Positions 23 through 119 are shown, counted from the first letter of the stretch. The stretch is DNA of 25,259 bases from Candidatus Heimdallarchaeota archaeon (GCA_019058275.1 JAHLVW010000080.1:1-25259); one strand, 5' to 3'. A program made the numbers and translations. Notes: generated by a model not told the origin, from the sequence alone.

Positions 23-119
23 ATGCTCAGCCAGCAGGTACTTACCACTTCAGCATGTCATTACCAACCTGGACTTCTAGCCCTTCAAGAAGAAGTGGGT
101 GCAGTGATTCTACATTTTT
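23..119 (+). repeat. Intergenic repeat copy 1 (full length; 28-bp core 71..98; type-A right flank GTGCAGTGATTCTAC + T-run)
   Basis: ATGCTCAGCCAGCAGGTACTTACCACTTCAGCATGTCATTACCAACCT-GGACTTCTAGCCCTTCAAGAAGAAGTGG-GTGCAGTGATTCTAC; colinear with the copy at 24370..24467. Confidence 0.95.

Follow-up and report, generated by a model that had tools for sequence, protein, structure and literature searches.

The 28-bp core at positions 71-98 (+ strand) of the archaeal DNA analysed here is almost certainly a copy of the 23S rRNA trailer that is used as the joint between gene cassettes. The window, by which we mean the whole stretch of 25,259 nucleotides, is the complete contig G000:C75 of a 4.1-Mb, 32% G+C, 93%-complete archaeal genome bin (G000; Candidatus Heimdallarchaeota), and it carries part of an array of about 120 kb that starts at the 23S gene. 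About 3% of the genome of this close archaeal relative of eukaryotes consists of small accessory cassettes lined up behind its only 23S gene, the joint being what appears to be a functional piece of the rRNA processing stem, with no recombinase found in the array. The best explanation that we can offer as a whole, to which we give an even chance, is that an enzyme whose gene lies elsewhere exchanges cassettes at this trailer joint, within or adjoining AAGAAGAAG. A vague "integron-like" label thereby becomes a biochemically testable site with one concrete candidate enzyme. New in this work are the test and rejection of a dif geometry, the comparison of 12 resident copies of the core, the bound of +5 to +13 on the exchange (position 0 being the first C of CCTT, window 82), and a lead to a genus-specific recombinase. 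No description of cassette arrays joined by 23S rRNA tails was found in the published literature, and PMC8813620 and a 2026 Asgard virus preprint, consulted for integration sites, held nothing relevant.

The core and the 23S trailer

Read directly, the core is GGACTTCTAGC-CCTTCA-AGAAGAAGTGG, 28 bp in which ACTTCT (73-78) is the exact reverse complement of AGAAGT (91-96), the two lying symmetrically within an 11-6-11 frame. A sequence-only reading of the window had pointed out this core with its dyad and had called the right arm its best conserved part. Both observations were borne out: the invariant columns in the alignment of the window copies are C83, T84, A87-G89 and G92-G97, nearly all of them in the right arm. 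The whole 28-mer is found again at 19681 and 24418 with 2 mismatches (up to 3 were allowed; chance expectation 0), and its 16-nt right part occurs 10-12 times in the window, on the + strand every time.

In the first copy, alignment identifies a spare 23S tail at 23-64 (the last ~42 nt of the gene), which goes with the cassette upstream of the window; it is followed by the core at 71-98, the start of the trailer, equivalent to L001:16777-16804, and by a right flank at 99-119 of what we call type A (GTGCAGTGATTCTAC and a T-run), common to many unrelated joints. All further joints also lie on the + strand. Copy 2 spans 1267-1354 (core 1306-1333; nhmmer E 8e-11), and alignment together with nhmmer places copy 3 at 7538-7577 (core 7538-7565, with almost no 23S tail), copy 4 at 9480-9526 (core 9480-9507, with an eroded left arm), copy 5 at 10884-10970 (core 10923-10950, type A flank), copy 7 at 12332-12424 (core 12378-12405, with a type B flank resembling the native trailer), copy 9 at 20401-20489 (core 20448-20475, type B flank) and copy 10 at 22428-22519 (core 22471-22498). 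Copy 6 at 11578-11605, found by alignment, consists of the right part CCTTTAAGAAGAAGTG only, without left arm or tail, and the 28-mer search and nhmmer gave copy 8 at 19633-19715 (core 19681-19708) and copy 11 at 24370-24467 (core 24418-24445, with a long tail and a type A flank). A decayed copy, a pattern match with 2 mismatches, lies at 18150-18177 inside the large 12.4-19.7 kb block.

The resident 23S rRNA gene (L001:12489-16770; Rfam LSU_rRNA_archaea, 2340 bits, complete) is the only one in the genome and lies on contig C98, where the first array copy stands directly behind the G+C-rich 23S region. Its own core, at L001:16777-16804, begins 7 nt behind the end of the gene (L001:16770, corresponding to window 64). 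The repeat thus has three components: the terminal 40-70 nt of the 23S gene, reaching ~160 nt in certain copies, a 6-nt spacer and the start of the trailer. The window copies align with the resident 23S end and trailer at 82-91% identity, and copy 1 (G000:C75:23-97) does so at 88% with the resident end in L001. The gene itself also contains a LAGLIDADG homing-endonuclease reading frame (C98:100717-101274; L001:14718-15275; Pfam E 2.6e-19), which presumably sits in an rRNA intron.

Just outside the mature ends of the 23S rRNA, the trailer is complementary to the 5' leader, which contains CACACTTCTTC-AAG-TGA-AA-TCTAGA-TC-TCCAT. Leader and trailer are predicted to fold into a long duplex (-72.9 kcal/mol) with the core wholly inside, and this fold shows the resident core as the 3' strand, or outer arm, of the pre-rRNA processing stem. 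The leader segments predicted to pair with the core are CACACTTCTTC and TCTAGATCTCC; the predicted helices join AGAAGAAGTGTG of the core to CACACTTCTTC of the leader, TCTAGA to TCTAGA, and ATGGA of the trailer to TCCAT of the leader. A covarying pair between leader position 5 and trailer position +16 is A-T in G000 and its relative G006, and T-A in G008 and G010. In other archaea, the 23S rRNA is excised and circularised at a bulge-helix-bulge motif in such a stem (PMC12918454). Small irregular internal loops separate the leader-trailer helices where this cut site is expected, the prediction being a 3-bp helix between loops of 2x2 and 3x2, which departs from a regular 3-4-3 bulge-helix-bulge; a 4-bp helix TGAA/TTCA would require C at +4, which is absent from all resident copies.

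The assignment of the core to the stem accounts for the strong conservation of its sequence and indicates where that sequence could change without harm to the ribosome. It also bears on the dyad. Predicted pairing to the leader fixes four of the six bases in the left half-dyad, and the remaining two fall inside the 2x2 loop. The dyad would therefore owe its existence mostly to pairing with a leader in which TCT/AGA is itself repeated, and would not represent binding arms for Xer. By way of caution, RNA pairing can produce dyads in cores of this type as a side effect.

Other readings of the core were considered and given up. A promoter, with CCTTAAAG as a TATA-like box, was dropped on the grounds that the resident copy is an rRNA trailer and that the C variant destroys the box; a coding C-terminus, suggested by open frames that cross the tail, was dropped on the former ground. 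An attC-like hairpin was rejected as well, since the copies fold no better than shuffled sequence: the folds of three copies as single-stranded DNA, on both strands, gave z values of -1.3 to +0.8 against shuffles. No covariation was seen in the core's internal hairpin among 194 copies, and Rfam gave no match to the whole window at gathering scores, nor to two copies at E <= 1.

Cassettes, joints and the array

Searched with an nhmmer profile of the ~100-nt repeat, the genome yields 64 copies, confined to contigs C35, C38, C75, C80, C98 and C99. Since contig ends overlap at repeats (C98 and C38 by their ends, C99 by its start), these six contigs are taken to be pieces of one array. The copies are co-oriented on each of them, whatever the orientation of the neighbouring genes, and 153 of the 154 further copies that were found in 55 metagenomic contigs are co-oriented too. 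Copies have nested 5' ends and a common 3' part, a pattern which suggests that the core end is the end retained. The core family is limited to this genus; a bin of another genus (G063, genus g7; contigs C8, C69, C88 and C12) has a 23S end 90% identical to that of this genus and several spare tails, probably through contamination of the bin rather than spread of the array. A search of IMG/VR viral contigs for the core as attP gave two matches, both chance matches inside genes.

Apart from the main array, a small inverted array of the repeat lies 47 kb upstream of the 23S gene (C98:54400-56700; L006:6450-8655), part of it 81% identical to C38:12452-13922. The layout seen behind the 23S gene recurs, with an unrelated core sequence, on C33:39790-42205 (L110:1291-3706), where tRNA-Leu(CAG) is followed by two spare copies of its 3' end (~24 and ~48 nt) with ~20 nt of downstream flank that bound two small inserts (~1.7 and ~0.6 kb); a search of that contig for tyrosine recombinases gave none. 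Similar duplications of tRNA-like 3' ends occur at C48:33841/36607 and C107:33539/43403. Screens by k-mers and self-BLAST found CRISPR arrays, IS-like repeats and tRNA-tail duplications as the other repeats of the genome, and no small-RNA arrays.

Spare copies stand at each boundary between unrelated gene blocks, in direct orientation throughout, and the cassette genes lie in both orientations. The blocks of the window include a nuclease-like gene, an aldehyde-oxidoreductase module, a beta-lactamase-fold gene, a VapBC pair, an ABC-transporter block and an F420-ligase-like gene. Across the array the cargo is integron-like, with toxin-antitoxin pairs, STAND NTPases, surface proteins and ABC transporters; the commonest recurrent cassette families are TSP3 surface proteins, STAND-TPR proteins, ABC transporters, DUF433/DUF5615, HicA and PIN, and none of the recurrent families is recombinase-like. 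Another recurrent family, of ~320 aa, has 17 copies at 12 loci (L056:10526-11485, L038:1027-2952 and 15 more places) and no match in Pfam, PDB sequences or Atlas. Two duplications were seen within blocks of the window. A tandem one (2256-2555 and 2616-2915, 83% identical) encodes two SCP2 domains that form the N-terminus of an 887-aa aldehyde:ferredoxin oxidoreductase fusion, and a direct one (12458-12669 and 13847-14058, 87% identical), made up of the head of the ABC-transporter block including the sequence that follows the joint, brackets a 4Fe-4S (QueG-like) gene.

How homology between cassettes is kept or lost at the joints was compared for 142 copies from G000 and four relatives. Homology of the upstream cassette crosses tail and core and ends at +18 in 17 pairs, and homology of the downstream cassette begins anywhere from -64 to 0, so that a joint is composed of a variable 23S tail belonging to the upstream cassette, the shared core, and the head of the cassette that follows. 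Two classes of head occur, type A (GTGCAGTGATTCTAC and a T-run) and type B (GAGTCCTGAGCATC), and each is a version of a native 23S trailer: G000 itself has type B as its resident trailer, and G008 and G010 have a type-A-like sequence in that place. The type A flank is a replacement rRNA trailer that the following cassette brings along at its head; its GTGTG and TTCTAC could pair with GTAGAAGGCCACAC of the leader, and its T-run is likely a terminator.

The core is the minimal unit retained at joints, several of which keep core and flank only (e.g. C98:104317 and window 11589), and joints with only ~18-40 bp of repeat still lie exactly at cassette boundaries. A joint in the relative G005 (C141:7277) connects cassettes from different G000 arrays, which indicates that cassettes reassort as units. 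An internal joint at C38:2104-2222 has exactly the sequence of window positions 1-119, from the tail through the core to the type A flank, with complete divergence after the T-run; this is one joint with two alternative cassettes, arising either from strain polymorphism or from a duplicated cassette end. No pair of filled and empty alleles was found among 681 kb of arrays at >=93% identity. From the position of the copies at boundaries, their direct orientation, and the retention or loss of homology in or beside the core, the core behaves as a recombination joint served in trans, and very probably is one. The proposal of a recombination site in direct orientation consequently survives in the behaviour of the joints, all of which are direct, and not in the specific dif architecture attached to it, the core being the 23S trailer.

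Place and possible agents of exchange

Between -11 and +13 there is no difference among twelve resident copies (five genomes, seven metagenome contigs), which from +14 onward divide into eight flank classes. None of them has C at +4 or a base other than A at -1, against 38% and about half of the spare copies, respectively. Since all 12 keep A at +4 where 38% of the spares have C, exchange at the resident site would be placed rightward of +4, provided that selection by rRNA processing does not by itself account for these bases. An upstream cassette that is 99.9% identical is shared by the metagenome contigs L055 and L104, which remain common through +15 and have different flanks from +16, and a cassette that is 96.5% identical between G000 C38 and G005 C133 extends from +5 of one joint to +30 of the next. 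Linkage between variable positions is strong only at +14/+16/+18, in a block that begins at +14 (seen in 141 and then in 261 copies), and it is low everywhere else, so no single crossover can be read from linkage.

Read together, and as indirect evidence, the breakpoint pairs, the lack of variation among resident copies and the block of linkage confine the exchange, should it have a single point, to AAGAAGAAG(TG), window 87-95(97). This narrows the point to about 9 bp. The interval of +5 to +13/+15 would then be inside the right arm and outside the CCTT(A/C)A centre (82-87), contrary to the earlier placing of the crossover in the central 6 bp, and no inverted-repeat binding arms flank it. In the mechanism that we propose, the core would be the attachment or crossover segment at which cassettes leave and enter, with the enzyme encoded elsewhere. 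Exchange in or beside AAGAAGAAG (87-95) would fall within the outer helix, on the far side of the trailer segment left attached to the excised 23S rRNA, and an incoming cassette would hence bring a new outer trailer that needs only to pair with the leader. We give slightly less than an even chance to a site-specific exchange carried out in trans by an enzyme dedicated to it.

The alternative that survives best, though we consider it unlikely, is that general homologous recombination or gene conversion, within and between related cells, does all the work. The conserved 23S tail and trailer would then be a landing pad that requires no dedicated enzyme, and the core would appear special only as the block that is identical in all resident copies. 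Linkage decays within ~10 nt all along the repeat, tail included, and nearly all site pairs show four allele combinations, which general recombination fits as well as, or better than, one fixed crossover. The breakpoints of pairs with >=90% identity are scattered from -41 to +90, no recombinase lies in or beside any array, and the core is modestly better conserved than the tail (91% versus 86% in copies found by the tail alone, where some cores have decayed). The right parts of the core are species-typical (GCGAGG in G008 and G010, GTGTG in G000), as concerted evolution would give; selection for a flank able to pair with the leader of that species, after a cassette has entered at the resident site, fits this equally. 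However, 11 of 27 upstream stops pile up within +12 to +19 and are not spread over the longer tail, and joints with only ~18-40 bp of repeat sit exactly at cassette boundaries. The nested 5' ends and common 3' part suggest that the core end is kept, and the first acquisition of a tail by a new gene is left unexplained by this alternative.

In search of an enzyme that could act on the trailer joint, no recombinase of any searched kind was found on the array contigs or beside the 23S gene of G000, and no Phage_integrase match was found on array contigs or up to 12 kb upstream of the 23S gene in G000 and 10 relatives of its genus. The genome has six tyrosine recombinase genes (on C55, C5, C9, C20, C36 and C78) and two serine recombinase genes (on C117 and C11). 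It also encodes Cas1 on C26, C76 and C48 and TnpB at many places, none of them on array contigs; neither a Y1 transposase nor a reverse transcriptase was found in this 93%-complete bin. The listing of host tyrosine recombinases that the sequence-only reading had called for thus produced six candidates, none placed where an array-borne integrase would be, and no homologues of them occur in 367 kb of metagenomic arrays.

One of the six is a 352-aa Xer-like tyrosine recombinase (C55:205722-206777; L048:1220-2278, minus strand). Most members of the genus have one such gene, of 351-360 aa, 64-70% identity and conserved synteny, and with this query no divergent Xer-like recombinase of the kind was found in 72 genomes of other genera. 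A canonical XerA, as defined by the cut-off of model NF040815 (220 bits; the best score in G000 is 115-117 bits), is absent from the searched genomes of the genus and present in many other genera of the class. The coincidence of a genus-specific enzyme with a genus-specific core is a single phylogenetic one and provides a lead, not evidence. The expectation of a XerA-like or other recombinase acting in trans accordingly keeps its ground as regards the in-trans behaviour of the joints and the genus-specific Xer-like gene, and loses it as regards a canonical XerA. Action of a tyrosine recombinase in trans on the core is possible. A bolder proposal, that genes are captured by a system whose recombination site is the 23S stem's outer arm and which the divergent recombinase at C55:205722-206777 serves in trans, is doubtful in our judgement; if true, it would amount to an integron rebuilt from the end of a ribosomal RNA gene and a chromosome-resolution enzyme.

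A stricter version, the Xer/dif or pdif site proposed earlier, in which a XerA-like enzyme would exchange strands at the edges of CCTT(A/C)A (82-87) between two 11-bp arms, is very improbable. The dyad is real and of moderate significance: 6 of 11 arm positions match in the window copy, which 5.4% of all window 28-mers reach, and a run of 6 is held by just 0.25% of them, in a frame that was picked post hoc with the sequence already in view. Positions -1 and +4, which border the centre, each occur in two states that are linked to neither side, a behaviour that a heteroduplex zone could show; a few joints have position 0 as their very first base; and the genus possesses a conserved Xer-like recombinase of its own. 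Yet among 194 distinct copies with a recognisable left arm, symmetry reaches 5/11 in 92, 6/11 in 76 and 8 at most, and the variation within the six dyad pairs is all one-sided (A/C in 46 copies, G/A in 13, T/G in 19), without a single compensatory or symmetric change. Species-level changes at -9, -6 and +14 likewise break the dyad without compensation, in G010 (A-9T with T+14C) and in G005 (T-6G). The symmetric bases are the outer ones of the arms, not those adjoining the centre.

The left arm itself is dispensable, being missing from several working joints, several of which start at or near position 0, and conservation of copies found by the right flank alone falls gradually leftward with no step at -11. 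In pdif modules, sites stand in alternating (inverted) orientation, whereas all copies here are direct on each contig. All 12 resident copies have A at +4, and the homology of one cassette pair starts at +5; exchange at +5 to +13/15 would lie to the right of the spacer (0 to 5) and not at its edges. Archaeal dif is a single-copy site near the replication terminus whose arms have few or no mismatches (PMC2958812), against arms of 5-6/11 (6/11 in the window copy) and 64 copies in a row behind the 23S gene.

Least probable of all is a role at the RNA level instead of the DNA level, as decoy or alternative leader partners for the splicing endonuclease, as terminators or as templates for RNA-mediated copying, which would suit one strand of an RNA processing stem, type A flanks that end in a T-run, and shared 3' with nested 5' ends, but is opposed by the constant orientation of the copies whatever that of the neighbouring genes, by single copies that fold no better than shuffles (z -1.3 to +0.8), by the lack of covariation in the internal hairpin and of any Rfam match at E <= 1, and by the failure to find a reverse transcriptase in the 93%-complete genome.

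Comparison with known systems

In bacterial integrons and tRNA-gene islands, a dedicated integrase lies beside the site or inside each element. A layout close to that of the 23S joints is that of tandem genomic islands at the 3' ends of tRNA/tmRNA genes, such as the ssrA islands that McMurdie et al. reportedly described in Dehalococcoides in 2011. As in those islands, every insertion is accompanied by a direct repeat of a stable RNA gene's 3' end, the row has the intact gene at one of its ends, and the blocks are accessory and variable. Unlike in those islands, the target here is the 23S end with its processing-stem trailer, the tail copies vary in length, and the ~64 blocks are mostly of one to a few genes, none with an integrase of its own. 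R2 and similar eukaryotic elements insert inside 28S genes and move by way of RNA, with a reverse transcriptase and an endonuclease that they themselves encode. They too use a large-subunit rRNA gene as a safe conserved target and have fixed 3' and variable 5' ends, whereas insertion here is behind the gene and no reverse transcriptase was found.

With dif/XerA and pdif systems, the array shares a 28-bp frame that can be drawn on the core and a host enzyme that would act in trans, and, with pdif in particular, sites that bound mobile modules. It differs from them in arms of 5-6/11, in ~64 direct copies behind an rRNA gene, in an exchange that would lie outside the proposed centre, and in the absence of a canonical XerA. 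The archaeal pre-23S stem (PMC12918454) shows the same leader-trailer complementarity directly outside helix 1 of the 23S rRNA, with bulges a few base pairs apart; in the genome analysed here the bulges are irregular, and the trailer strand is multiplied through an array of accessory genes, of which that paper has no counterpart.

The remaining comparators are integrons, namely sedentary chromosomal integrons, integrase-less CALINs and the archaeal integrons of Ghaly et al. 2022 (PMC9668308). The array differs from these in having no IntI adjoining the first site, in lacking an attC-type imperfect palindrome that folds as single-stranded DNA (by the folds, Rfam and the missing compensatory changes), in a site that is a copy of an rRNA gene end, and in genes that lie in both orientations. 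It resembles them in its long rows of small, promoter-poor accessory cassettes, mobile and variable, between same-direction sites, in a cargo rich in toxin-antitoxin and defence genes, and in the reshuffling of cassettes between relatives.
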